From positions 40,686 through 104,685 of the IMG/VR virus record IMGVR_UViG_3300033121_000264: 64,000 bases of DNA; one strand, written 5' to 3'. The DNA comes from a virus. Its lineage: Duplodnaviria > Caudoviricetes. How positions within the stretch are numbered: position 1 is the stretch's first letter; every line of letters starts with the position of its first letter. A program made the translations under genes and the position numbers. Positions 37,212 to 54,519 of the stretch are shown here, piece after piece. The notes beneath the pieces were generated by a model, which was given only the letters and a program-made list of their open reading frames with translations, did not search any database and had not been told where the DNA came from.

Positions 37212-37456
37212 AATATCTCAATGAACATCTGTTCAAACTGTTCTTCTTTACCGTAAATTTTACCATGACATCTTTTACACAGTGTGATGCCATTATCTAT
37301 AACTAACTCTAATTCCGGGCTACTTGCAAATTTTTTAATATGATGCACTTGTAACTTCTTTTTATTTCTACAACCTGGGTACTTACATTTATTACCATCG
37401 CGTTTTAAAACAGCATCTCGAAACTTTTTATAAAGGTCGTTATACTGACGTTCCAT
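37160..37456 (-). CDS. HNH endonuclease (packaging-associated position)
   Basis: VLKRDGNKC...QVHHI...NGITLCKRCH. Confidence 0.88.
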   Translation of the reverse strand: MERQYNDLYKKFRDAVLKRDGNKCKYPGCRNKKKLQVHHIKKFASSPELELVIDNGITLCKRCHGKIYGKEEQFEQMFIEILCGPMIIKLLRIQKGLQ

Positions 37457-38511
37457 TACAGTCTTTCGTAAGCAGAAGTTATCATCATTCTAATTAATGT
37501 ATCTAAATTAACTGTGCGATGCCAACCTAATACTAGATTAGCCTTAGAAGCATCACCCTTAAGATAATCTACTTCACTTGGACGTTTTAATGAATCGTCA
37601 ATGTCAACCCACTTCATATAGTCTTCTCCAATATACTCAAATGCTTTTCGCACAAAGTCTTCAATTTTAGTTGTCTCACCCGTTGCAATAACATAATCAT
37701 CCGGTTTATCTTGTTGTAGCATAAGCCACATGGCTTGTACATAATCGCCGGCAAAACCAAAATCTCTATAACTATCTAGATTACCTAATTTTAATTTTCC
37801 AATCTTATTCTTTCCACCATTATGTAATTTAGCGACATACTTACAAACCTTTTGTGTAAGAAACTCGTCGCCTCTACGTGGCCCCTCATGATTAAACAAA
37901 ATTCCGCATGAAGCGTGAATACCATATGCTTTTCTATAATTGTTTACTAAGTAGTGTGCTGCTGTTTTAGCTACTGCGTATGGAGACATTGGTGAAAAAG
38001 AAGTTCGTTCATCCTGATATTTATTAATAACTGGTTCTAAGTGGTCTGTATATAGTGTTGTATAGTTGTCCCCAAACATCTCACTTGTACTAGCCTGATA
38101 GATTCTAACAATATTAGGAAAAAGCCGTGAGGCTTCTAGTATGTTTAGTACGCCCTTGTAGTTTACGTCAAATGTATAGCCCGGTTGTTCAAAGCTAGTA
38201 TGTACGTGTGATTGGGCTGCCAGGTTATATATTTCTAATACTGGAGCATTATCATGATGATAAGAACCTCCACCTAAAAGCGAGTAGGCTTTATATATAG
38301 TTTTGTCTACTGAGAAGTAGTCCGTTACATCTCCCTCAACTAACTGAAAGTCCGGATTATTAATTACACCTTTTAATCGCCATAGATTATCGCTACTAGT
38401 ACGGCGTTTCATTCCTAATACTTTATAACCCTTAAGTAAAAGTAATTCTGCTAAATAACTTCCGTCCTGTCCATTTACACCTGTAATTAAAGCTACTTTA
38501 GGTTTATCCAT
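37456..38511 (-). CDS. gmd: GDP-mannose 4,6-dehydratase
   Basis: ALITGVNGQDGSYLAELLL, NLAAQSHV, QASTSEMFG, SPYAVAK, GILFNHE. Confidence 0.95.
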   Translation of the reverse strand: MDKPKVALITGVNGQDGSYLAELLLLKGYKVLGMKRRTSSDNLWRLKGVINNPDFQLVEGDVTDYFSVDKTIYKAYSLLGGGSYHHDNAPVLEIYNLAAQSHVHTSFEQPGYTFDVNYKGVLNILEASRLFPNIVRIYQASTSEMFGDNYTTLYTDHLEPVINKYQDERTSFSPMSPYAVAKTAAHYLVNNYRKAYGIHASCGILFNHEGPRRGDEFLTQKVCKYVAKLHNGGKNKIGKLKLGNLDSYRDFGFAGDYVQAMWLMLQQDKPDDYVIATGETTKIEDFVRKAFEYIGEDYMKWVDIDDSLKRPSEVDYLKGDASKANLVLGWHRTVNLDTLIRMMITSAYERL

Positions 38512-39442
38512 TATTGTCCTCTTTTAATGTTTCACTATTTAGTATTGGTTGGTCCACAGTCCCATCTATATATGTATGATATTCGCCCAAGTCATTTAGC
38601 GCTTTCTTAGAAGATAAAGATATTAGTTCCGCCTCGGTTGACATACGTTGTTTTTCCTTGGCGTTTTCAAATTGTTTTAATAGTCCAATAAAAGTCTTTT
38701 TTCTATCTTCAATATCCTTATATCGCTGGTCTCTTGTTACTTTTAAGTCCCGGTTCATCTTCTGATGTTTGTCAAGCAACTCATTATATTCTTTTGTCCG
38801 GGTCATCTGACTACTACGAATGCCCTGAATTTGGGCCATAATAGCTGCCGTATAAGTTCTATGTTGACTAAGTAAAAAGCCCTTATCTTTTTCGCCCAAC
38901 TCAGATTCTTCGATTTCCTTATCCTTATCTAACGCCTTATTAAGTTCCTTATCTAGTCGGGCCAACTCACCATCAATTTTAAACTTTTCCTTTAGGTTAC
39001 GATGCATCATAATTTCAAGGTCAATAGTCTTACATATCTGGCTTTCTTCTGAGTGAGTCACATCCCAATTAAACTGCTCTAAGAATTTGGCCCAGTGATA
39101 TAAGTACAACTCTAATTCGCGTTCTGAGTATTGTTGTTTAAGTTCGGCCCAGAAGGGTTTTGTTTTTAAGTCCTTAAACGCCTCTTTATTTTCTAGGCGA
39201 TTGAGTGTTTCGTGCTTATCATCTATTAATGAGTCGAGATGCTTCTGAACTACTTCTACAGTTCTATTAAGTTGTTGGGCAATTTCATCTGCACTTAGAC
39301 TATGCATGTTAGTATTCATGAAGTTAATTTCTTCAATACTAAACTTACCTCGCTTACGACCGCTCTGTTGTACAACTATGTCCGATGTGTCTGGTTTAGG
39401 TGTTTCGCCCTTAGGTGTTTCATTCACTAGATTGTCTGCCAT
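38504..39442 (-). CDS. HTH + coiled-coil protein (terminase small subunit candidate)
   Basis: KRGKFSIEE...EIAQQLNRT HTH; upstream of TerL. Confidence 0.4.
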   Translation of the reverse strand: MADNLVNETPKGETPKPDTSDIVVQQSGRKRGKFSIEEINFMNTNMHSLSADEIAQQLNRTVEVVQKHLDSLIDDKHETLNRLENKEAFKDLKTKPFWAELKQQYSERELELYLYHWAKFLEQFNWDVTHSEESQICKTIDLEIMMHRNLKEKFKIDGELARLDKELNKALDKDKEIEESELGEKDKGFLLSQHRTYTAAIMAQIQGIRSSQMTRTKEYNELLDKHQKMNRDLKVTRDQRYKDIEDRKKTFIGLLKQFENAKEKQRMSTEAELISLSSKKALNDLGEYHTYIDGTVDQPILNSETLKEDNNG

Positions 39443-40082
39443 AGAATTCCTTTATTAACTCTTGTACTGTATGTCTAATTAACTCTTGACGTTGTTTGGT
39501 TAGTTTGGCCTGATGTGATGGTTTGGCTCCAAAATTAGTAATCATCTTAAGATAGTCTGCTCTCATTTCGGCAGGCAAGTGTTCGTCAATGTAGTCCTTT
39601 AATTGTTCCGTCTCAAATTTTTCCTCAACCTCAAAATTTTCCTTCATTCCTCTTTCATTCTCATCATCTATGTCGCCTATATTTACGCAATCAACCAAAT
39701 TCTTCTTGGTATGATTTAAAGTGAACCAGGTATTATACTTATCACATTCCATCTTATCGGTAAAGCCCATACACTGATTCGTCGTTTTTTTACATAACTC
39801 ATCATATAAAGGGCAGGCGTGACAAGGCATTGCGGTCCTAAAATACTTATTACGCTTTAGATTGATAAATCGACTTTTAATATACACTCTTAAAAAGTTC
39901 TCAAGCGGCCTATCCTCGTCATATCTTCCATCATTAATCACATCTAATGCTAAAATGGTTCCCTCTTGCTTTAAGTCATCAACATCATAATACCCAAATT
40001 TAAATTGTTTGCTTAATTGTCCTACTACTTTATCTATTATTGCTAGTGCCTGTTCCTCTGAGTAATTCTTCAATTTTTTCAC
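39420..40082 (-). CDS. sigma70-family-like factor (region 2) with Cys cluster
   Basis: DVDDLKQEG...YDEDRPLENFLRVYIKSRFINLKR resembles sigma region 2. Confidence 0.65.
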   Translation of the reverse strand: MKKLKNYSEEQALAIIDKVVGQLSKQFKFGYYDVDDLKQEGTILALDVINDGRYDEDRPLENFLRVYIKSRFINLKRNKYFRTAMPCHACPLYDELCKKTTNQCMGFTDKMECDKYNTWFTLNHTKKNLVDCVNIGDIDDENERGMKENFEVEEKFETEQLKDYIDEHLPAEMRADYLKMITNFGAKPSHQAKLTKQRQELIRHTVQELIKEFYGRQSSE

Positions 40083-40948: not shown

Positions 40949-41161
40949 AAATATCTCCTATACGGAAAAACCCCTCCTAGGTATAATACACCACCAACAA
41001 ATGAGAATTAAAAAGATTAAATATAGATAGATTAGCTGAGACAAATTCAATTTTTGTCAGTTGATTTCGTTTGAATGCCCCCAACATTCACGACCCACCC
41101 ACAGGTAGTATATTTTGAATGAATAAACGGGCACCCCTATGCCTCATGATGATACATATTG

Positions 41162-41237
41162 TAAGGTGTTGCTATCAATAGACTTATGTATGTGTGATAC
41201 GCCGGCCCTCCCTAAGTCCTTACGCTGTAAGGGTTTA
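41162..41237. repeat. 76-bp paired-box element copy 1 (degenerate centre)
   Basis: TAAGGTGTT-N7-ATAGACTTA and TAAGTCCTT-N7-AAGGGTTTA, starts 51 bp apart. Confidence 0.75.
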
Positions 41238-41241
41238 CGAC

Positions 41242-41256
41242 TGGCACGATAGTTGC
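41242..41256 (+). promoter_or_regulatory. sigma54-like -24/-12 motif
   Basis: TGGCACGATAGTTGC matches TGGCACG-N4-TTGC. Confidence 0.55.
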
Positions 41257-41325
41257 CTTGGCCTCATAGCAAATACAATGCCATACCAAACAGAATAATT
41301 CTACAAGAATAATAGTAGATAGTTG

Positions 41326-41350
41326 TAAGTCCTTACGCACAACCAGGTTA
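41326..41350. repeat. solo 25-bp box
   Basis: TAAGTCCTT-ACGCACA-ACCAGGTTA. Confidence 0.65.
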
Positions 41351-41525
41351 TAGCTAAGTAGCAAATATCATACCGTAACACTCTCATAATAAAATGTTTA
41401 TTTTCTTGGAAATATTTCTTTTAGATATTTTGTTTTCTTTTGTGGAATTGTTCTGGACACGATAGGGATAGGTCGATAGAATACATAGAGACAAGAAAAG
41501 AACACTAAAGAGAAGGAAACGAACA

Positions 41526-41708
41526 ATGCCTAAGCTATTCTCCAAGAAGTCGATGCGTGAAGCGGTTGTCAAGATGCATCCCGTTATTGAGAACGGCCAG
41601 CACGTTTGGGTTGTGAGCAAGGGGTGGAAGTCCAAATATGCTTGGCCGGCCAATGGTATGTCAAGCCTAGAAATTGCCAAAAAAATGATGGAAAACTGGC
41701 AAGATTAA
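41526..41708 (+). CDS. early hypothetical protein
   Basis: AAGGA RBS, 60 aa. Confidence 0.6.
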   Translation: MPKLFSKKSMREAVVKMHPVIENGQHVWVVSKGWKSKYAWPANGMSSLEIAKKMMENWQD

Positions 41709-41780
41709 GGGTTGACAAAACCGATACTAAGTGTAGAATTGAAGCATACAAAGAAACGATAACACGAAGGAGATTGAAAG

Positions 41781-42026
41781 ATGGCTAAGCATGTTAAGAC
41801 GGTTTCGAGCTGGGATTTGTTTTCCGCTACTGTGTTGGGTGTCGATGTGGCACCTAGCAAGGGTGTGCAATTGAGCTACGGCGGTAAGATTCGTCGTGGT
41901 ACGGTTGAACGTATCGGACAACGTGAAGATGGTTCGATTGTGTTGAACGTGGAAACGCAAGACGGTTTCCGCAACTTCGATGCAGACTTGATTGAATCTT
42001 TCGAGATTCTGGAATTAGTTCTCTAA
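41781..42026 (+). CDS. early hypothetical protein (small SH3/WYL-like beta barrel possible)
   Basis: Own promoter, AGGAG RBS; LSYGGKIRRG...GFRNF pattern. Confidence 0.65.
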   Translation: MAKHVKTVSSWDLFSATVLGVDVAPSKGVQLSYGGKIRRGTVERIGQREDGSIVLNVETQDGFRNFDADLIESFEILELVL

Positions 42027-42109
42027 GTCTAGTTGACAAAGAGAGAGGCATCGGCTACAATTGGGTAGTCGATAGGATAACAGGAAAAGAAAAAGCCAGA
42101 GGTATTAGA

Positions 42110-42328
42110 ATGAGCATTGTAAACAGTACCGAATTGACGATTGCCGCAGTACGTGGTATGAGTGTTCGTCTGTTTGGTGAATCGTATGGTACGATTGATT
42201 ACCATGATGGTTTGTGGTTTCTTACCATTGGCGGTATACTGTATCACTTCGACGGTGAGGTACTAGATGAGATTAACTATGCTATGGCATATGCTTATCG
42301 TGAGTTGATACGCGAGGGGAAGGTGTGA
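42110..42328 (+). CDS. early hypothetical protein
   Basis: Own promoter, GAGG RBS. Confidence 0.6.
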   Translation: MSIVNSTELTIAAVRGMSVRLFGESYGTIDYHDGLWFLTIGGILYHFDGEVLDEINYAMAYAYRELIREGKV

Positions 42329-42377
42329 GCGTCACACCTAATGCAGACGCATAGGGCCGCCAGTAGAGGGGTACACA

Positions 42378-42593
42378 ATGGGAATGATGACTATAACGGA
42401 GATGCGAGACATGGTAAGTAGTCTAGAAGTTTCGATTATGCGAAATGAGCAACATCGTGAAGAAGCTCCCCATAACGACAAACGTGAATATTTCCAGTCG
42501 ATTATTGACGCCCAAAAATCGGCCAAACGATACTATGAAAAACGTATCGAAGAAGTTGGATTTGATAATATTGAGGAATTTTCTCAAAAATAA
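42378..42593 (+). CDS. early hypothetical protein
   Basis: GAGGGG RBS; ends just before element copy 2. Confidence 0.55.
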   Translation: MGMMTITEMRDMVSSLEVSIMRNEQHREEAPHNDKREYFQSIIDAQKSAKRYYEKRIEEVGFDNIEEFSQK

Positions 42594-42624
42594 CTCCGGC
42601 ACAGTAAATGCCTCTTGACAACCC

Positions 42625-42700
42625 TAAGTCCTTATAGGATAAGGGGTTAGGTCGCCGGGGCGCGTCCCCTCGCTCTAAGTCCTTACATATCAAGGGTTTA
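42625..42700. repeat. 76-bp paired-box element copy 2
   Basis: TAAGTCCTT-N7-AAGGGGTTA, N7, GGGGCGCGTCCC, N7, TAAGTCCTT-N7-AAGGGTTTA. Confidence 0.9.
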
Positions 42701-42872
42701 CGTTCCGGCATGAAAAATGCCTAGTCAAGAAAAAAGATTTTGCGTGCCTGGCATAAGAATTATTTTCTCGGCTTTTTTGAAAATATTTTCGATTTTGCTA
42801 TTGTGTTTTGTTGGAACGGACGATATAGTATGTAGAGTAATTGATTAAGTGATTGGTTTGAAAGGTTTGAAG

Positions 42873-43082
42873 ATGAAGATTGAAATTGGTGGTCGTGAAG
42901 TTTCCCGTAAGTCTTGCGAAGTTTGCAACGTGCTGTCGTTTGATTATCCGGATTTTTGTGATGCGTATATTGAATATGCCGAATTTGTCGATGGTGGTGA
43001 ATTGAACGATGAGCAGCTAGAAATTCTGAATGAAGAAAATTCTATGCTAGTTCACGAATTAGCTCACGAATCGCAATTTTAA
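42873..43082 (+). CDS. early acidic hypothetical protein
   Basis: ATG after AAAGG; DYPDFCDAYI motif. Confidence 0.6.
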   Translation: MKIEIGGREVSRKSCEVCNVLSFDYPDFCDAYIEYAEFVDGGELNDEQLEILNEENSMLVHELAHESQF

Positions 43083-43152
43083 GTATTGACGCAAGGTTAA
43101 ACAGCCGATAAAATCAGTAGAGTGATACAGTAAAGGTTTTAAGGGTAGAACG

Positions 43153-43347
43153 ATGAGCATTGAAAAGAAATTGATTGAAGCAACGAACGCTGGCGACTAT
43201 GCTGGTTTCGGCAAACATCGCCGGATTGTTAAGGAAACGGAAATTTCGGTGCCGGAAAAGTTTTGCGGTACTGAGATGGAATATGAGCGGTACGTTTCCG
43301 CTTACAAACGGTCGAATCGTGACGCATACGAAGAATACGCGGAGTAA
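43153..43347 (+). CDS. early hypothetical protein
   Basis: Own promoter and RBS. Confidence 0.6.
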   Translation: MSIEKKLIEATNAGDYAGFGKHRRIVKETEISVPEKFCGTEMEYERYVSAYKRSNRDAYEEYAE

Positions 43348-43533
43348 ATAAAATGGGTACTTTGCCGCCAGACGGTATGGTTATCGTAACTTTGTCAATC
43401 GTCGCCTTTGTTTTTATGGTGATTATTATTTGGGATGATATTCGTAAAAATTAGAAATTAGGGTTGACAAATTCGGCCCGGTTGCTAAAATCAGTAGAGT
43501 AACGAAAAACGACTTTTCTTAAGGAATACAAAA

Positions 43534-43752
43534 ATGTCAGAAGCTGAACTAGTTGTCAAGGCTTTAGCTGCTCATTTGCGAGATTTAGCAGATATTTGTT
43601 TAAGAGAAGATAATGACGGCCGTGGCGAATTATATTTAATCGCAGCGAAAGAATGCGAATCTGCTCTTGACGGCAAATATGGTTGGTCGTTAGAATTGTG
43701 GAAAGAATTAAAAGAATTACGCGAAGCAAACGAAGATGCACGTTCTTTGTAG
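43534..43752 (+). CDS. early hypothetical protein
   Basis: Own promoter, AAGGA RBS. Confidence 0.6.
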   Translation: MSEAELVVKALAAHLRDLADICLREDNDGRGELYLIAAKECESALDGKYGWSLELWKELKELREANEDARSL

Positions 43753-43827
43753 ATTCTGAAAATAGGTATTGACAAGCCTAGAAACAGTCGATACAATACA
43801 TAGAACAAAGGAAACAAAGGAAATAAG

Positions 43828-44004
43828 ATGAACGAACAAATTCAAAAAATGCTGGCCGAGCTACTTGATAGCAACGAACAAATTCTGAAATTGAGTGGGT
43901 CGAAAGTATCCCCCTCTGAAGAGGGGTTGGGAAACATTAACAACCATGCTTGCGATATTTATTTATTCGCAAAAAATCTGGAAAGACTATTGACGCAACA
44001 ATAA
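43828..44004 (+). CDS. early hypothetical protein (58 aa, below ORF-track cutoff)
   Basis: Own promoter at 43769, AAGGA RBS, MNEQIQKML... Confidence 0.55.
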   Translation: MNEQIQKMLAELLDSNEQILKLSGSKVSPSEEGLGNINNHACDIYLFAKNLERLLTQQ

Positions 44005-44053
44005 GCGGCCGATATAATTAGTAGAGTAACGAACAACGTAAAGGAATAGAAAA

Positions 44054-44269
44054 ATGCTGTACGACAACGAAGAACAATACAACGACGCCCGCGAATACTA
44101 CGAAGGTAACGATTACGACAATTGGGAAAACGAGCAAGTTTTCCAAGATAACGAGGGCGAGGAAGACTGGGGGGGCGAGGAAGATTCGTATGACCCCGGG
44201 GAATACGAGGCCAGCGACGAGGACGATGTTTACGGATGGGACGAGGACGATGGAAGGTGGGACGAATAG
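44054..44269 (+). CDS. extremely acidic small protein
   Basis: 31 of 71 residues D/E; own promoter and AAGGA RBS. Confidence 0.65.
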   Translation: MLYDNEEQYNDAREYYEGNDYDNWENEQVFQDNEGEEDWGGEEDSYDPGEYEASDEDDVYGWDEDDGRWDE

Positions 44270-44278
44270 GTAAAATAC

Positions 44279-44412
44279 GAGGATGGGACGGTCTGGCACC
44301 GTGCTAGTTTAGGGGAAATGTGCAAGCTACACAAAGTACCCAAAACTTACTAGCTGGATACTAGTTAAGCTAGGAAAATAGGATAAAGTGGGTTCGACCC
44401 CCACCATTCTCA
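44279..44412 (+). ncRNA. tRNA-like RNA with expanded anticodon domain
   Basis: Acceptor GAGGATG/CATTCTC, D-arm ACGG/CCGT, stem CTAGTTTA/TAAGCTAG enclosing about 55 nt, T-arm GTGGG-TTCGACC-CCCAC. Confidence 0.55.
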
Positions 44413-44501
44413 GCAAATAAGTAGAATAGGTAGTCTGGGAAAACCTGGGTTGCCCATTTTATTTATATTAACAGTGAGAATGAGTCTCAATCTCGTCGTC
44501 C

Positions 44502-44577
44502 TAAGTCCTTTACTGGTAAGGGTTTACGTCTGGGGGCCGCGCACCGCCCACCTAAGTCTATATACAGTAAGGGTTTA
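44502..44577. repeat. 76-bp paired-box element copy 3
   Basis: TAAGTCCTT-N7-AAGGGTTTA, centre GGGCCGCGCACC, TAAGTCTAT-N7-AAGGGTTTA. Confidence 0.9.
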
Positions 44578-44718
44578 CAGTTTGGTATGGTATTTGCCTA
44601 TCGTTTTAAAAAATAATTGTGTGCCGGGCATGAGAATTCTTTTCTGACCTATTTTGGAAAATTGTAGCGAGTGGCGTTGACAGGCGGCCGATAATTATGG
44701 TAGACTCAGTGAGTCAAG

Positions 44719-44937
44719 ATGATTCATTATATGAGGTTTATTATGGTTATTCGTACTGATTTTCAATTGTTGATTCACGACTTAGCCTGCTGCCAACTAA
44801 TGAAGAAAAAAGATTTAGATAGGTGCTTAACAGAACGTGGTTCAAACTCTATCATCGTGCTTGGCACCGTTCGCACAATTAAGTGGAAAAGCGAGGGGGC
44901 TGGATACTACAAGGTTTTTACGGTTCCGTTTGAATAG
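44719..44937 (+). CDS. early hypothetical protein
   Basis: Promoter at 44677; start may be a downstream ATG. Confidence 0.55.
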   Translation: MIHYMRFIMVIRTDFQLLIHDLACCQLMKKKDLDRCLTERGSNSIIVLGTVRTIKWKSEGAGYYKVFTVPFE

Positions 44938-45095
44938 GTGAAACTATAACCATTGATTTTACGTTTGCACGGTATCGAATGCCGCACCGCAGAAACCGTG
45001 ATTGCAGAAAATATTTTGCGAGACTAGTTGACAAGGTTTCGGCCAGTCGCTACAATTCACTAATCGAACGAAGAACACTTTAAGGAGATAGAAAA

Positions 45096-45515
45096 ATGAC
45101 GAATTTGATTCAACCGGGAATTACGCTGAACAATGGGGAAGTGATTGGTTCGATGAGCGACCTAGATTGTTTCCGCCAGTTCAGTTTTGACGCATCGACC
45201 TATATTGATGCAATCAATGCTGACAACGGAATCCAGTTGAGCAAGCCGAAAAATGGGAACGGACACAATAAGCCGATTTACCGGATTGCGAAGATTGGGA
45301 AAACCCAACGGGCTGCGACGGTTAAGAAAGAACGGAAAGCTACGAAGGCTGAGAATCTTGCGAAGTATATGAAAGAGGCGGAAGCTGGATTACCTTTGAG
45401 TGTTTGCAGCGACGACGAACTCTGCGACCGTATGGTCGCCGTGTTAAGCAAGCAAGGTAAGGACGGTTTGAAGTTTGGGGCGGTCGATGGCAAATGGGAT
45501 GGCGATGAAAACTAA
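45096..45515 (+). CDS. early hypothetical protein
   Basis: Own promoter, AAGGAG RBS, 139 aa. Confidence 0.7.
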   Translation: MTNLIQPGITLNNGEVIGSMSDLDCFRQFSFDASTYIDAINADNGIQLSKPKNGNGHNKPIYRIAKIGKTQRAATVKKERKATKAENLAKYMKEAEAGLPLSVCSDDELCDRMVAVLSKQGKDGLKFGAVDGKWDGDEN

Positions 45516-45695
45516 GGGGAATAGATGATTAAGGTAATTTGGGTGGTGCTGCTGGAATGGGCCAGCAGCGTTGATTGCATGGGAGCCTTCTCTAATGAGA
45601 CTGAGGCTCAAGAACACTTGAACACTTTGTATGATTCGCTAGATTACCCAAAGTCTGCATTTAGCCTACAATCCACACGCTATAAGGAATAGACC

Positions 45696-45771
45696 TAAAG
45701 CCTTATGGTGTAAGGACTTAGGTGGCCGGGGCGCACCCCGTCGATGTAACCATATATACAGTAACACTTTA
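45696..45771. repeat. 76-bp paired-box element copy 4
   Basis: TAAAGCCTT-N7-AAGGACTTA, centre GGGGCGCACCCC, TAACCATAT-N7-AACACTTTA. Confidence 0.85.
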
Positions 45772-45855
45772 CATCTTTAAATTTTGCCTATTGACATATT
45801 GGATAAAATGACGATAATATTGGTATAGCTCACAACATTGGAAGGATAGATAAGA

Positions 45856-46101
45856 ATGAAAATCTACGTGCTTTGCGATACTTACGTTGATTACGGGCAA
45901 TATGACCGAGATACGGAAATTGAGCAATTTAAGGATGTTGCGTCAATTGAGAAGGTCGTGGTAATTTGGGCACAACAGGAAGTTAAGGCAAATAAGATAA
46001 GACCGGCAACTTGCAAAGTATACGACGATGTGGGGCTTTGCGTAGGTAGGGTAGATTTGAAGAAAACTGCGGCGGCTGGTAGGGTCGTGATGGCCCAATA
46101 A
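45856..46101 (+). CDS. early hypothetical protein
   Basis: Promoter at 45791, AAGGA RBS. Confidence 0.6.
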   Translation: MKIYVLCDTYVDYGQYDRDTEIEQFKDVASIEKVVVIWAQQEVKANKIRPATCKVYDDVGLCVGRVDLKKTAAAGRVVMAQ

Positions 46102-46220
46102 TTGTATCGGCTAATATATGCCGATTATGATAGAGCCCGCCATTGCAAGCGAAAAAGTGGCACTCGCAAGCTAATATTGTACTTGACAAAGCTATAACGA
46201 TTAGTATAATAGAGACATAT

Positions 46221-46323
46221 CAGGGGACATGGTGACATAATAGTTGTGCTGGTGAGCGGTGGTAACACAGCGGAAGCCAGAGAACATAAGTATTATGGGT
46301 GGGTTCGATTCCTGCTCCCTAGC
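46221..46323 (+). ncRNA. possible tRNA-like small RNA
   Basis: Starts just after promoter 46183-46210; T-arm GTGGG-TTCGATT-CCTGC; imperfect acceptor CAGGGGA/TCCCTAG. Confidence 0.35.
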
Positions 46324-46356
46324 CTTAGTTAGTTCAGAAAAAGCCGAAGGTGAAGT

Positions 46357-46557
46357 ATGTTGAAAGATAAAGCCCTAGCATTACAGTTTGCCCAAGAGTT
46401 GAAAGCCCTATTTGATAAATATGAGGCAGAACGTATTACGCGAAATGAAAATGACTTGACAATTGTGGGGTCATTTGGTACAATTGATGATATTGACATT
46501 ACGACTGGTACTATCTGGTCAGAACAACCTTGTGGTTGGGCATTAATTAAGGAATAA
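46357..46557 (+). CDS. early hypothetical protein
   Basis: AAGGTG RBS. Confidence 0.55.
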   Translation: MLKDKALALQFAQELKALFDKYEAERITRNENDLTIVGSFGTIDDIDITTGTIWSEQPCGWALIKE

Positions 46558-46565
46558 CAATACAA

Positions 46566-46769
46566 ATGATAGAAAGAATGTGGATTAATCAACCATCAAC
46601 CTTGCAACCTGACCATTTTTGGCATGGTACAAATGTATTGGTTGATATGAGTTCTGTTAGATTTCATGAAAGAACCAAACAGAATCATGTTGACATTTAC
46701 TTTTTAAGCGGTAATATTATTAGCTGTAGATGCTCAATGTTATCATTATCTAAAGGATGGAAGCAATGA
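46566..46769 (+). CDS. early hypothetical protein
   Basis: AAGGA RBS; MWINQPSTLQP motif. Confidence 0.55.
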   Translation: MIERMWINQPSTLQPDHFWHGTNVLVDMSSVRFHERTKQNHVDIYFLSGNIISCRCSMLSLSKGWKQ

Positions 46770-47075
46770 AAACCTTTCGGCTTTTTCTTCTCCTAATCAC
46801 AGTTAAAATCAATATTGATGCGAATACGTATCAAATAAAAGATTGGCAACCTTTCGAGATTGTTAATCCTGCCCCAATTATCCCATTGTTACAACCTCTT
46901 AAGAAAAATTGGTGGATTCCATGACCGAAATGTTATCTGATTGGGCATTCTATTATGGTATGCTAGTTTTCATTTTAGTCGATGAATGGTGTAAAGTACA
47001 TCAAAGACCATGGTATGTAAAATTTATATTACTTACAACAATTTTAACATTTGGCATTTTTATGTTGAAGTTGTA

Positions 47076-47151
47076 TAAGTCCTGACTCCATAAGGAGTTA
47101 GGTGTTGGGGGCGTGCCCCGCGAACGTAAGTGCTTATGTAGTAACGACTTA
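47076..47151. repeat. 76-bp paired-box element copy 5
   Basis: TAAGTCCTG-N7-AAGGAGTTA, centre GGGGCGTGCCCC, TAAGTGCTT-N7-AACGACTTA. Confidence 0.9.
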
Positions 47152-47326
47152 AAACTACTAAAGAATTATCCCCAGGTTACCGATACTATCTATATCAAAG
47201 GAGTATTGGTATGAAAATTATTTTGACAATTCTTGCGATTGGCGTATTGACAATGACGGGCTGCGTTGCTACAATCAAGAGCGTAACAGTTGCTTATAAC
47301 GATGTGGAAGTAAGGACGGAATTCCG

Positions 47327-47515
47327 ATGAAAATTACTATTGATATTCAGCACCGTTACACGGATAATGATAACGAGGAAAATGAATACATTGTCAAAAT
47401 CTCTGATGATACCAAATTAGAGACCAGTGAATACAAGTGTGACGATATTCAAAAAGTAAAGAATTTTATTAGTTTAACAGTTCGTGAAACTTTGTTTGAC
47501 TTAGGAATGTATTAA
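47327..47515 (+). CDS. early hypothetical protein
   Basis: 62 aa, coupled to neighbours. Confidence 0.5.
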   Translation: MKITIDIQHRYTDNDNEENEYIVKISDDTKLETSEYKCDDIQKVKNFISLTVRETLFDLGMY

Positions 47516-47719
47516 TGAAAATCACTGGCCGCGAATTGGCACAGATGGGTCGTAATGGTCACACCACCCATTTTAGTGGTACTGGCTTGCATCGCAATTG
47601 GAAGAAACAACCAAAAGGTGGAAAGAAAGCCCAGGCTCGTAAAGCTATTCGAGAATTTGCTTGACAAGTCTGAAAAGTCTGATACACTAAGCTAGTCACC
47701 AACAATAAGGATTAGTAAA

Positions 47720-47974
47720 ATGACTGACCTATCCCATCCTGAGTTTAGACTGACTAGGAACCGGCCATACGTTCTTTGTAACTGTCCTGGACGTAAGGAC
47801 GTTCGTGCCCGTCAAGGTTATTACATTCGTGCTAAAGATTCTCAAGCTGCACTTGAGCGAATGGCTGAACACTTTCCGGATGATATGCAATTCGGATTTA
47901 CTTGCGATTTGTGGAAGTTGCCCGAAGGTATGAGTTTTGAACACTATAACGAAATGTTGGAGATTATGTCGTGA
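47720..47974 (+). CDS. early hypothetical protein
   Basis: Own promoter, AAGGA RBS. Confidence 0.6.
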   Translation: MTDLSHPEFRLTRNRPYVLCNCPGRKDVRARQGYYIRAKDSQAALERMAEHFPDDMQFGFTCDLWKLPEGMSFEHYNEMLEIMS

Positions 47975-48201
47975 AGATTACAGAAGCAATCAACCAACTT
48001 ACAGAATGTTTAAAAACTGGCGAAACCGACATTATCTTTGCATATTGGGAAAGAAATATGTTTGATATAGACGGTAAACTAATTGACAAAGAAACCTTTG
48101 CAGGTTATGCTGAAGATATTGAAGACAATATGGATTGGTCGTATGCTTGGGAAGATATGATGGAAATTATTGCTAGAAATGTAGCAGAAGATTCAGAATA
48201 A
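47971..48201 (+). CDS. early acidic hypothetical protein
   Basis: GGAG RBS; stop 2 bp before element copy 6. Confidence 0.6.
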   Translation: MKITEAINQLTECLKTGETDIIFAYWERNMFDIDGKLIDKETFAGYAEDIEDNMDWSYAWEDMMEIIARNVAEDSE

Positions 48202-48203
48202 CG

Positions 48204-48279
48204 TAAAGCCTTTACTCGTAAGAGTTTAGGCGTTGGGGGCGTGGCCCGCCGCCATAAGTCCTTATATACCAAGGGATTA
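48204..48279. repeat. 76-bp paired-box element copy 6
   Basis: TAAAGCCTT-N7-AAGAGTTTA, centre GGGGCGTGGCCC, TAAGTCCTT-N7-AAGGGATTA. Confidence 0.9.
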
Positions 48280-48406
48280 CGCTCACTAGAATTATTCGTA
48301 GAATTATTTTTCCAGGCCGCTTGACAATGCCGATAAAGACTGTATAATGATGGAGTAAGGCAAACGAATCACTTCGATTCGGAACCAATTATCTAAGGAG
48401 TCTGAT

Positions 48407-48598
48407 ATGTCGCAAGTTCAAACCATTCGTGCCCTTCGTATGGCGTCTGCTCTCGTTAAGAAGAACCGTTTCGATACGGCTCGGATTCAGCGTGCTATCA
48501 AGTCTAAGGTGGGTGTGACGGTCGATGGTCGTACGATTGCCGGCATCCGAATGTCGCATCGTTATCAGGTGGGGAAAGCGTTGAGTTTGGTTATGTAA
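48407..48598 (+). CDS. small basic early protein
   Basis: Own promoter, AAGGAG RBS, Arg/Lys-rich. Confidence 0.65.
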   Translation: MSQVQTIRALRMASALVKKNRFDTARIQRAIKSKVGVTVDGRTIAGIRMSHRYQVGKALSLVM

Positions 48599-48962
48599 AT
48601 AAAAGATTGGGGACTGGGGGAAATAGCAAAGGTGGGTACAATATGATAGAGACTCACGCCTCCAGTTTTCAATTTTCTAATTTCGTTTTTAGTCAAGCAA
48701 ACCATTTTTTTGGGAGACAATGACAATGCAACAATATATTGAGTACCGGTTGAGTGAAAAGGGAAGCGAACACCAAGGCCAATGGATTGAGTTTGGCCGA
48801 GTCGAGGCTAAGAGTCGTCGGCAGGCAATGAAGCAACTAAGTAAGGATGACCCGAAAGAGGGGCCACAAGTTCAGCGGAAAGTTCGTCAGGCCGAATAGG
48901 GCTTGACAGATTGAAAATCCGTTGTAAAATTGTGGTATACTAATCGCTTCTCTTGGTGTAAC

Positions 48963-49355
48963 ATGACGATTGAAAAGCAAGCAACGTTTGATTTTGTTGT
49001 TGGAAAAATTCGCGAACAGGGTTGTGCTTCTGTTAAACCCGATTCAAATAGCTGTTTGTATCGTGGACCGAATGGTACTAAATGTGCGGCTGGTCATGTC
49101 ATTCCAGATGAAAAATATGACCCTTGTTTTGAGGGTTGTACTGTCCCCGTATCTCTTGCAGACTGGGACTCTGGTAATACTAAAAAACTTTATGAAGTTT
49201 TGAAAGAAACTGGACACGATTTAAATTTGTTGCGTTCTTTGCAACGTGCTCACGACAGCATATCTATGGAATATAATTTCCTAGCAGGTTTTGAGAAAAA
49301 TGTCCAGCATGTAGCAGAATTTCATGAGTTAGTTTACACTCCGCCGAAGGAGTAG
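48963..49355 (+). CDS. hypothetical protein, paralogue A (CLYRGPNGTKCAAG family)
   Basis: Colinear similarity to 50037-50423; ATG at 48963 matches the paralogue start. Confidence 0.8.
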   Translation: MTIEKQATFDFVVGKIREQGCASVKPDSNSCLYRGPNGTKCAAGHVIPDEKYDPCFEGCTVPVSLADWDSGNTKKLYEVLKETGHDLNLLRSLQRAHDSISMEYNFLAGFEKNVQHVAEFHELVYTPPKE

Positions 49356-49358
49356 TCC

Positions 49359-49434
49359 TAAGTCCTTTAGCCGCAAGGCTTTAGGCATAGGGGGCGTGCC
49401 CCATAGCTCTAACTCCTTATGCTACAACGACTTA
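49359..49434. repeat. 76-bp paired-box element copy 7
   Basis: TAAGTCCTT-N7-AAGGCTTTA, centre GGGGCGTGCCCC, TAACTCCTT-N7-AACGACTTA. Confidence 0.9.
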
Positions 49435-49478
49435 GAAATATACTTGACAGATGAGAATTCTATTGTATAATAATTGAA

Positions 49479-49620
49479 CTTAGGGAGATGCCGCTATGGT
49501 GGCGGATACGCCTATAAGGTAGGATAGAACGGTCCTACTACCTAGGAGCCAAATACTTGTATCTGCTAAAATAGGCAGATTGCCCCGAGCCACATGATGC
49601 CTGCGAAATCAGTCGCAAGC
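49479..49620 (+). ncRNA. putative structured small RNA
   Basis: No ORF-track call between promoters at 49444 and 49633; four hairpins and a closing stem. Confidence 0.4.
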
Positions 49621-49666
49621 GAATATTTAGGGTTGACAAACGAAAAGCCGAGAGTATAATAGTCGT

Positions 49667-49873
49667 ATGAGCAAACAATTCTTCCATGTTAGTGAGCGGG
49701 TTAAAAGTTTAATGATGGGCCATATTGAGGGCACTGTTGTTATAACCCATAATAGGGGTGAGTTGGGTTGGGAATACTTTATCTGTTGGGATAATGGGAT
49801 GAGTGGGTCATTTACAGAAGAACAAATTGTAGCAAACGGAATTAAGAAATGTCATCGCTTAAATCAATCCTAA
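49667..49873 (+). CDS. early hypothetical protein (probably leaderless)
   Basis: ATG 6 bp after -10 box. Confidence 0.55.
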   Translation: MSKQFFHVSERVKSLMMGHIEGTVVITHNRGELGWEYFICWDNGMSGSFTEEQIVANGIKKCHRLNQS

Positions 49874-50040
49874 ACCAGAAATCCTACGGCATTTTTATTC
49901 AAGGGGTTGACGAAAACGGAATTCCTTGTATGATTAGGGTCGCAGGTGAGTGGACGAACAAACGAGTGGCTCAACGTGAAACTCGCCGCTTAATGAATTT
50001 GGATAGTCGAAAACTTAAAGGGGAATTGGTACAATTATGA
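49849..50040 (+). CDS. early hypothetical protein
   Basis: Overlaps both neighbours. Confidence 0.5.
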   Translation: MSSLKSILNQKSYGIFIQGVDENGIPCMIRVAGEWTNKRVAQRETRRLMNLDSRKLKGELVQL

Positions 50041-50423
50041 TTACTATGCAAGAAACGTTTGATTTCGTTGTCGGTAAGATTCGTGAGCAGGGTTGTGCTT
50101 CTATTGTGGAAGGTGGTAGTAGTTGCCTTTATCGTGGGTCGAATGGTACGAAGTGTGCCGCTGGTCACGTTATCCCAGATGACAAGTATGACCTTATTTT
50201 TGAGGGTTGTACCGTTGTCACGAAACCTTGGGATGGAATGCGTGAAGGTGTTAAAAAGTTGTACGAAGTGTTAAAAGAAACTGGCCACGATTTAGATTTG
50301 CTTCGTAACTTACAACGATGTCACGACGATGCATCTTCATTTAAAAACTTTATGGAGAAGTTTGAAATTAACGTGAAAGAGATTGCTACCTTAAAAGAAT
50401 TAACCTACACCCCGAAAGCATAA
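50037..50423 (+). CDS. hypothetical protein, paralogue B (CLYRGSNGTKCAAG family)
   Basis: Similarity to 48963-49355. Confidence 0.8.
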   Translation: MITMQETFDFVVGKIREQGCASIVEGGSSCLYRGSNGTKCAAGHVIPDDKYDLIFEGCTVVTKPWDGMREGVKKLYEVLKETGHDLDLLRNLQRCHDDASSFKNFMEKFEINVKEIATLKELTYTPKA

Positions 50424-50438
50424 AACAACCCAACGTCA

Positions 50439-50514
50439 TAAGTCCTTACTATGTAGGGATTTATGGCTAAGGGGCACGCCCGCCATACCTAAGTCGTTAT
50501 GCCACAAGGGTTTA
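50439..50514. repeat. 76-bp paired-box element copy 8
   Basis: TAAGTCCTT-N7-AGGGATTTA, centre GGGGCACGCCCG, TAAGTCGTT-N7-AAGGGTTTA. Confidence 0.9.
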
Positions 50515-50675
50515 CGTCCGGCACGATATTTGCCCAGAAAATCTTTTCAGAATTATGATGCCAGGCACACCATTTTATTTTATTCTAGGCTCTGTATTAG
50601 TGGGGATTAACGATTGACGCCAGGCCGATTCTATGGTACAATCCAGACTTCGCAGCCAGTTAAAACCGGAGTCAA

Positions 50676-53295: not shown

Positions 53296-53372
53296 GCTGG
53301 CATGGCTCGACTGAGAAAGGCACCGCACTTGTAATGCGGATTATGTGGGCGCGAATCCTACTGTCAGCCCCA
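53296..53372 (+). tRNA. tRNA-Thr(UGU), encoded CCA, atypical T-loop
   Basis: GCTGGCA/TGTCAGC; CCGCA-CTTGTAA-TGCGG; T-loop CGCGAAT. Confidence 0.8.
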
Positions 53373-54424: not shown

Positions 54425-54498
54425 TACGGTGGGGAGCCGCTGGTGGCTCGGAATAGCTGTTAACTATTTTGCCATTGGTTCGATTCCAATTGCCGTAG
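54425..54498 (+). tRNA. tRNA-Asn(GUU)
   Basis: TACGGTG/TGCCGTA, G discriminator; AATAG-CTGTTAA-CTATT; ATTGG-TTCGATT-CCAAT; own promoter. Confidence 0.85.
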
Positions 54499-54519
54499 CT
54501 AGTTTAGATAGGACAACGT

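Follow-up and report, generated by a model that had tools for sequence, protein, structure and literature searches.

Sigma-54-type boxes coupled to paired dyad elements in the early region of an uncultured phage and in its relatives

We analysed bases 40686-104685 of a 104,685-bp IMG/VR virus record of an uncultured phage (64,000 bases, below called the window), in which short boxes resembling the -24/-12 promoters of sigma-54 (RpoN) RNA polymerase accompany repeated dyad elements. The record has 35% G+C and is estimated by CheckV to be 68% complete. Structural and packaging genes (tape measure, large terminase and, judging by position, a putative portal gene) occupy the minus strand up to approximately position 41,000 of the window. 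The rightward early region begins at approximately 41,200 and is composed of numerous small open reading frames (ORFs), almost each of which is preceded by its own strong promoter TTGACA-N16-18-TAnAAT. Between 41000 and 53000, 68 sigma-70-type promoter-like sites were observed where 27.5 were expected, many of them matching 11-12 of the 12 positions. This region is interrupted by about ten tripartite elements of 76 bp, each with a GC-rich spacer between a dyad (TAAGTCSTTA-N6-AAGGGTTTA) and a second one, at a pitch of 51 bp.

Boxes of the early region and their strength

An earlier reading made from the sequence alone had listed seven GG-N10-GC motifs near the elements. All of them are present at the coordinates and on the strands given there (Table 1), all are intergenic, and the distance between GG and GC is exactly 10 nucleotides (nt) in all seven copies. 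The four copies emphasized by this sequence-only reading start at 41242, 42706, 44583 and 50519, whereas the second dyads of the adjacent elements end at 41237, 42700, 44577 and 50514; the gaps are thus 4-5 nt, in agreement with its description of motifs beginning 5-6 bp after the second dyad. The extended consensus TGGCAC-N5-TTGCW is matched at 11/11 positions by copy 41242 and at 10/11 by copy 50519, and the remaining copies have two or three mismatches.

Table 1. Features of the window (strand empty where none was assigned; minus-strand boxes are cited in the text by their right end).
Feature	Position	Strand	Remarks
Epimerase gene, GDP-mannose 4,6-dehydratase type	37456..38511	-	among packaging genes
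Gene of protein P0001 (312 amino acids)	38504..39442	-	candidate small terminase
Gene of protein P0002 (220 amino acids)	39420..40082	-	candidate late sigma factor
Tripartite element 1	41162..41237		degenerate dyad 41162-41186, GC-rich spacer, dyad 41213-41237; pitch 51 bp
Sigma-54-type box TGGCACGATAGTTGC	41242..41256	+	perfect consensus match; outward, 4 nt past dyad; 20.2 bits
Sigma-54-type box TGGCATTGTATTTGC	41269..41283	-	toward element 1 and leftward operon; 18.4 bits
Degenerate solo dyad, start TAAGTCCTTAC	41326..41350		
Sigma-54-type box CGGTATGATATTTGC	41361..41375	-	into degenerate dyad, gap 10 nt; 15.6 bits
Sigma-70-type early promoter TGGACA-N17-TAGAAT	41454..41482	+	first rightward cassette
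Weak box CGGCACAGTAAATGC	42597..42611	+	into dyad 42625, gap 13 nt, family-typical; 12.2 bits
Tripartite element	42625..42700		two dyads and GC-rich spacer
Weak box CGGCATGAAAAATGC	42706..42720	+	outward, 5 nt past dyad; 9.8 bits
Decayed second box TGGCATAAGAATTAT	42749..42763	+	-12 GC lost; from sequence and alignment
Tripartite element	44502..44577		
Sigma-54-type box TGGTATGGTATTTGC	44583..44597	+	outward, 5 nt past dyad; 19.7 bits
Decayed second box GGGCATGAGAATTCT	44626..44640	+	GC lost
Sigma-70-type early promoter	44677..44706	+	-35 is 79 nt past box GC
Tripartite element	50439..50514		
Sigma-54-type box CGGCACGATATTTGC	50519..50533	+	outward, 4 nt past dyad; 22.0 bits, best of the genome
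Decayed second box AGGCACACCATTTTA	50563..50577	+	like TGGCACACCATTTGC, common in relatives; GC lost
Sigma-70-type early promoter TTGACG-N17-TACAAT	50614..50642	+	-35 is 80 nt past box GC
Promoters with (G/C)CGATA in the spacer	41712..41739, 43990..44018, 48321..48348, 50614..50642		and others
Third transfer RNA (tRNA) gene	53296..53369	+	Rfam, 40.3 bits
tRNA-Asn gene	54425..54499		ARAGORN

Searched with up to two mismatches, the a priori consensus TGGCACG-N4-TTGC occurs in the window at about the frequency expected by chance, without enrichment (9 sites found, 7.85 expected). The degenerate pattern of the sequence-only reading occurs seven times with 0.75 occurrences expected, and this test is circular, since the pattern was derived from the data. 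Therefore an independent weight matrix of 22 columns was trained on 166 distinct boxes from other phages only; it represents relatives of this phage, not a published promoter matrix. The whole genome was scanned on both strands, with 30 Markov simulations as the background. The five top matches of the genome are, in decreasing order, the copies at 50519, 41242, 44583, 41283(-) and 41375(-). These are all the matches scoring at least 14 bits, whereas the simulations gave 0.83 on average and never more than three. Comparison with a random background had been proposed in the sequence-only reading, and its outcome, together with the recurrence of the boxes in relatives described below, upholds the view that these are sigma-54-type boxes and not chance matches. 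Copies 42597 and 42706 score within the background and are distinguished by position, not by score; the former has, in addition, the geometry typical for the family. Five copies are thus confirmed as strong, and two are marginal.

Boxes and dyads in related phages

The exact dyad pattern was found in at least 120 IMG/VR contigs whose G+C content ranges from 33 to 67%. Many of these contigs share a gene block beside the early region (large terminase, ERCC4 nuclease, epimerase, a protein of 312 amino acids and a sigma-like protein of 220 amino acids), and therefore the dyad-bearing contigs represent a real phage group. Megablast and distant blastn searches of GenBank phages with the region and with the module of a relative produced no match, and a search with the 312-residue protein found a single distant locus. 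An Rfam scan reported tRNAs only.

Perfect boxes TGGCACG-N4-TTGC occur 40 times in the 1.11 Mb of relatives' DNA that we examined, with about 0.5 occurrences expected, and there are 121 boxes with one mismatch. For 35 of the 40 perfect boxes there is a dyad no more than 300 bp away. The boxes vary mainly at TGGCA(C/T)(G/A) and agree with the sigma-54 consensus TGGCAC-N5-7-TTGCT (PMC12316311). The positions left free by the search fit sigma-54 as well: TT precedes TGGCAC, AT precedes TTGC, and A or T follows GC in 84% of cases. The spacing is strict, as TGGCAY-N5-TTGC was observed 154 times and every other spacing from N1 to N10 only 2-12 times. At the level of the sequence and of the family, the assignment of these candidate promoters to sigma-54 is well supported. 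The functional tie between boxes and dyads proposed by the sequence-only reading is also borne out, since the pairing recurs in over 100 viral contigs, where spacing and geometry are strictly kept.

In four complete or nearly complete relatives of 161-223 kb the boxes cluster within 3-6 kb, and the reversed control pattern has no matches. Almost all boxes of G004, G028 and G031 fall into stretches at 8.1-11.8 kb, 142.2-145.1 kb and 118.3-124.4 kb, respectively, which suggests a specialised immediate-early segment.

The dominant layout among 211 paired-dyad elements of the relatives is an inward box whose GC is separated from the first dyad by 14-15 nt. Outward boxes are mostly situated 37 nt from the element, back-to-back with an inward box. 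Three copies face a dyad in the phage considered here, namely 42597, 41375(-) and 41283(-); the gaps of the first two are within the family range, and the third lies 31 nt from element 1. The copies 4-5 nt past an element all point outwards. In the second conserved arrangement of the relatives, an outward box lies 27-39 nt (mostly 36-39 nt) upstream of a sigma-70 -35 hexamer. The present phage has a stretched version of it, the distance being 56-80 nt in three copies and reaching 197 nt at 41242.

The arms of the dyads in 94 box-to-dyad units of the relatives are often mismatched, and G-U pairs are as frequent as A-C pairs. Judging by this substitution pattern, the dyads behave as protein-binding DNA sites rather than as RNA hairpins, and therefore a dyad-binding protein would be a natural candidate for the regulator; the proposal of the sequence-only reading that the paired boxes serve as activator sites is plausible. 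On the same grounds we discarded the idea of a hairpin RNA gene, encoded by the dyad and transcribed from the box.

The relatives also provide evidence for promoter activity. About 28 distinct boxes are followed, at a distance of 26-40 nt, by a purine-rich ribosome-binding site and an ATG codon, and no sigma-70 promoter intervenes. The messenger RNA (mRNA) leader shared by the group, ATAAGAAR, starts 13 nt past the GC of the box in 17 of 18 cases, and 6 nt past the -10 hexamer of sigma-70 promoters in 44 of 55 cases. Therefore both promoter types should give nearly the same 5' end. The start point implied by the leader would be close to the usual sigma-54 distance.

Many gene-proximal boxes of the relatives are preceded by a conserved palindrome of the type GTTTTCC-N3-GGAAAAC, which ends 23-24 nt before the box (L100 at 4269 and 5668, L103, L106, L117, L004, L042, L206 at 11937), and an AT-rich stretch (TCTATATATAG) follows the GC. 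As a candidate activator site, the palindrome would lie unusually near the core promoter. The phage analysed here has neither gene-proximal box promoters nor this palindrome.

The sequence-only reading took the occurrence of boxes in both orientations to favour binding over productive transcription. This did not stand. The five plus-strand copies are co-directional with the early genes; the two minus-strand copies belong to the divergent region, are directed along the leftward operon and point into dyads, which is the family norm; and the orientation of all boxes agrees with the flanking transcription units. The short distance of the relatives' boxes to start codons and the constant position of the leader behind them likewise point to productive promoters.

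Candidate reader of the boxes and competing explanations

This genome and four large relatives yielded no gene for a phage RNA polymerase, and therefore the host polymerase must be used. An RpoN DNA-binding domain was found neither in this genome nor in 15 relatives. The phage encodes proteins of the sigma-70 family, and these were rejected as readers because the box halves are merely 5 nt apart. Given these observations, the likely reader is the host sigma-54 holoenzyme together with an activator, possibly the host's own.

Our preferred explanation is that the boxes are recognition sites for the host RNA polymerase carrying sigma-54. They would form a promoter class common to a large group of uncultured phages that rely solely on the host polymerase; within the group, the boxes would be physically coupled to dyad elements at the borders of early cassettes, and some of them would drive genes directly. 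In the present phage the stronger copies (41242, 44583, 50519 and the leftward 41283 and 41375) are most likely auxiliary promoters that act in the direction of the neighbouring cassette from a position upstream of its sigma-70 promoter, and a controlling protein probably docks at the adjacent dyad element. We assign a probability of about 0.5 to the reading that the boxes of this phage are sites of the sigma-54 holoenzyme, serving as auxiliary activator-dependent promoters or as docking sites under relaxed constraint. Their contribution here is probably minor, since they are atypically placed, weaker than those of the relatives and partly decayed. The data show the fit of the sequence, the coupling of boxes and dyads throughout the family, their geometry and where the mRNA leader lies in the relatives; sigma-54 binding, promoter activity and the identity of the activator are inferred, and function in this particular phage is uncertain.

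The constraint on the individual copies indeed looks relaxed. Each deviation observed here (CGGCAC, TGGTA, ATGC, C after GC) has counterparts among catalogued sigma-54 promoters, which include entries with CGGCAC, TGGTA, ATGC and TTGCC (table S2 of PMC12316311); therefore binding is still plausible.

Several observations weigh against a sigma-54 function of these copies. Their scores belong to the lower half of the family distribution, whose median is 23.4 bits. The W after GC is retained in both minus-strand copies, while all five plus-strand copies have C at this position, compared with 4% in the relatives. Three companion boxes (42749, 44626 and 50563) retain the -24 half and have lost the GC. 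Pattern scans of IMG/VR and JGI metagenomes revealed the outward layout at 4-5 nt in a single further contig, L206, from a moderately related phage that shares the general plan of the early region; the other matches to a box immediately after a dyad lie within coding sequences and are due to chance. A strong sigma-70 promoter is already present between box and gene in every cassette. Boxes 41242(+) and 41283(-) face each other across a gap of 12 nt, and polymerases cannot occupy both boxes of a face-to-face pair simultaneously. As for the activator, no match to the enhancer-binding AAA+ domain (PF00158) was detected in this genome, and among 34 relatives, ten of which are at least 90% complete, there were only weak P-loop-type matches in three. 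We know of no case of sigma-54 initiation without an AAA+ activator. Finally, the explanation presumes a host with rpoN.

An unlikely explanation, and the one that survives best among the competitors, is that the boxes are relics: brought by mobile regulatory modules recombining at the dyads, they would now be inactive, with early transcription depending wholly on sigma-70. The scores below the family median and, for two copies, at the background level, the loss of GC in the three second boxes, the nearly unique layout, the lack of the gene-proximal box promoters and of the palindrome, and the abundance of strong sigma-70 promoters all agree with this. On the other hand, none of the seven copies has lost GG or GC, and these sites account for all of the five top matches of the genome. 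Moreover, the position 4-5 nt from the dyad is kept in four separate modules although the flanks have diverged (mean column identity 57%).

It is quite unlikely that the box is bound by a different phage or host protein that cooperates with the dyad-binding one, its likeness to sigma-54 promoters being coincidental. Face-to-face pairs, with gaps of 4-5 nt in the relatives, and back-to-back pairs do resemble composite operators; the box is held at a fixed distance of 14-15 nt from a dyad that acts as a protein site; the plus-strand copies here read GGCA-N7-TGCC, a partial palindrome; and the failure to find an activator gene would also be accounted for. However, the motif is asymmetric and fits sigma-54 at 11 constrained positions and at further unconstrained ones, with the strict N5 spacing. 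The box is the sole promoter-like signal before about 28 genes of the relatives, where the leader lies near the usual sigma-54 distance, and an RpoN-like DNA-binding domain is absent from the phages searched.

Silent docking, the option preferred in the sequence-only reading, is very unlikely. According to this explanation, closed complexes of sigma-54 polymerase would act as insulators or roadblocks between cassettes, or the sites would titrate the host RpoN. In its favour, the sigma-54 holoenzyme binds DNA in an inactive state and many intragenic sites of E. coli are bound, according to one study (PMC4591121); convergent boxes flank elements in the relatives, and the missing activator gene is consistent with it. 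But the leader geometry of the gene-proximal boxes in relatives indicates real initiation, a handful of sites per genome would be insufficient to titrate a sigma factor, and the boxes here run with the genes and not against incoming transcription.

Chance matches or simple RNA hairpins or terminators of the form GGCA...TGCC are hardly credible: the a priori consensus is not enriched in the window and the plus-strand copies could form stems of 4-5 bp, but the boxes fold no more stably than shuffled sequence (z-scores from -1.4 to +0.5), the terminator scan yielded 10 sites with 9.8 expected, the relatives have T or A instead of C after GC and therefore cannot form the hairpin, and the association, both by position and throughout the family, greatly exceeds chance.

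The boxes share with bacterial sigma-54 promoters (PMC12316311) the 10-nt distance between GG and GC, the extended consensus (fitted to varying degrees by the copies of this phage), the tolerated variants, the intergenic location and, in the relatives, an mRNA leader starting 13 nt past the GC. Unlike those promoters, they belong to early regions of lytic-type phages, keep a fixed distance to a conserved double dyad and often form convergent, divergent or tandem arrays. Further, neither an AAA+ activator gene nor a classical activator site at -100 to -150 was identified for them, and in this phage they lie 56-197 nt upstream of a sigma-70 promoter. The nearest cassette system described is that of the PeSLs (promoter-early stem-loops; a promoter plus a terminator stem-loop) of T4-type phages (Arbiol et al. 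2010, PMC2839356). These are also short repeated modules with strong sigma-70-type early promoters, which separate small non-essential early genes and likely mediate modular shuffling. However, they have no sigma-54-type box, whereas the repeat considered here is a double dyad that seems to behave as a protein-binding DNA site and is conserved across phages with 33-67% G+C. As to a terminator stem-loop in the elements of this phage, their folds have z-scores of -1.6 and -2.25, and the terminator scan reported no site at them. The silent sites of the sigma-54 holoenzyme in E. coli, as described in PMC4591121, are similar in being good sites with no obvious activator or target gene; they are mostly located inside host genes, in contrast to the boxes analysed here, which are intergenic, phage-borne and positioned relative to a conserved element.

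Our literature search found no paper on sigma-54-type promoters in early regions of lytic phages or on the pairing of boxes with dyads. As far as we know, sigma-54 promoters always depend on an ATP-driven activator. Pairing of box and dyad with no activator gene in the phage could mean that these phages tie early expression to the signalling state of the host, or that they carry a novel way of handling the sigma-54 polymerase. In either case phage annotation would gain a further promoter class, and the activation of sigma-54 could be approached experimentally. A quite speculative and doubtful extension is that the group runs a part of its immediate-early programme on the host sigma-54 holoenzyme with no AAA+ activator of its own, the double dyad and its binding protein, 14-15 nt from the box, replacing or controlling the enhancer step; the phage in the window would then carry a rearranged and weakened module. 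If true, this would represent a novel mode of sigma-54 activation or exploitation. The window is a weaker, rearranged example, which illustrates that the module can decay or be re-wired.

Other features of the region and of the group

Many sigma-70-type early promoters contain the motif (G/C)CGATA in the spacer between the -35 and -10 hexamers, for example TTGACAATGCCGATAAAG. The motif was also observed in L103 and L206; in relatives it follows the -10 hexamer (TATAATGTCGATATAAGAAG). Possibly it represents another regulatory site common to the phage group.

In genome bins the dyad pattern was observed in 58 contigs, mostly as single dyads, which may be due to chance or to something else, and phage-like contigs with multiple dyads are assigned to bins from many phyla. 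A host from Planctomycetota was considered and dropped for this reason. In bacterial metagenome bins from several phyla, some single dyads of the form TAAGTCNTTA-N6-AAGGGTTTA directly adjoin tRNA genes (L131, L132, L152, L155, L174, L175, L176, L178). Possible interpretations are borders of prophages or att sites, terminator-like hairpins and chance matches.

As regards the tRNA genes of the window itself, the tRNA-Asn was reported by ARAGORN and not by Rfam at the gathering score, and the third tRNA was reported by Rfam and not by ARAGORN.

The genes of P0001 and P0002 adjoin the early region, and by tblastn both are present in at least 50 dyad-bearing loci. P0002 has a weak match to sigma-70 region 2 and a cysteine-rich cluster; given this match and its sequence, it is probably a late sigma factor. 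P0001 has a weak match to a helix-turn-helix at the N-terminus, followed by a lysine- and glutamate-rich stretch; its position, the weak match and the sequence suggest that it is probably the small terminase. The epimerase gene located among the packaging genes is flanked by genes for HNH and ERCC4 nucleases and is kept in 38 related loci.

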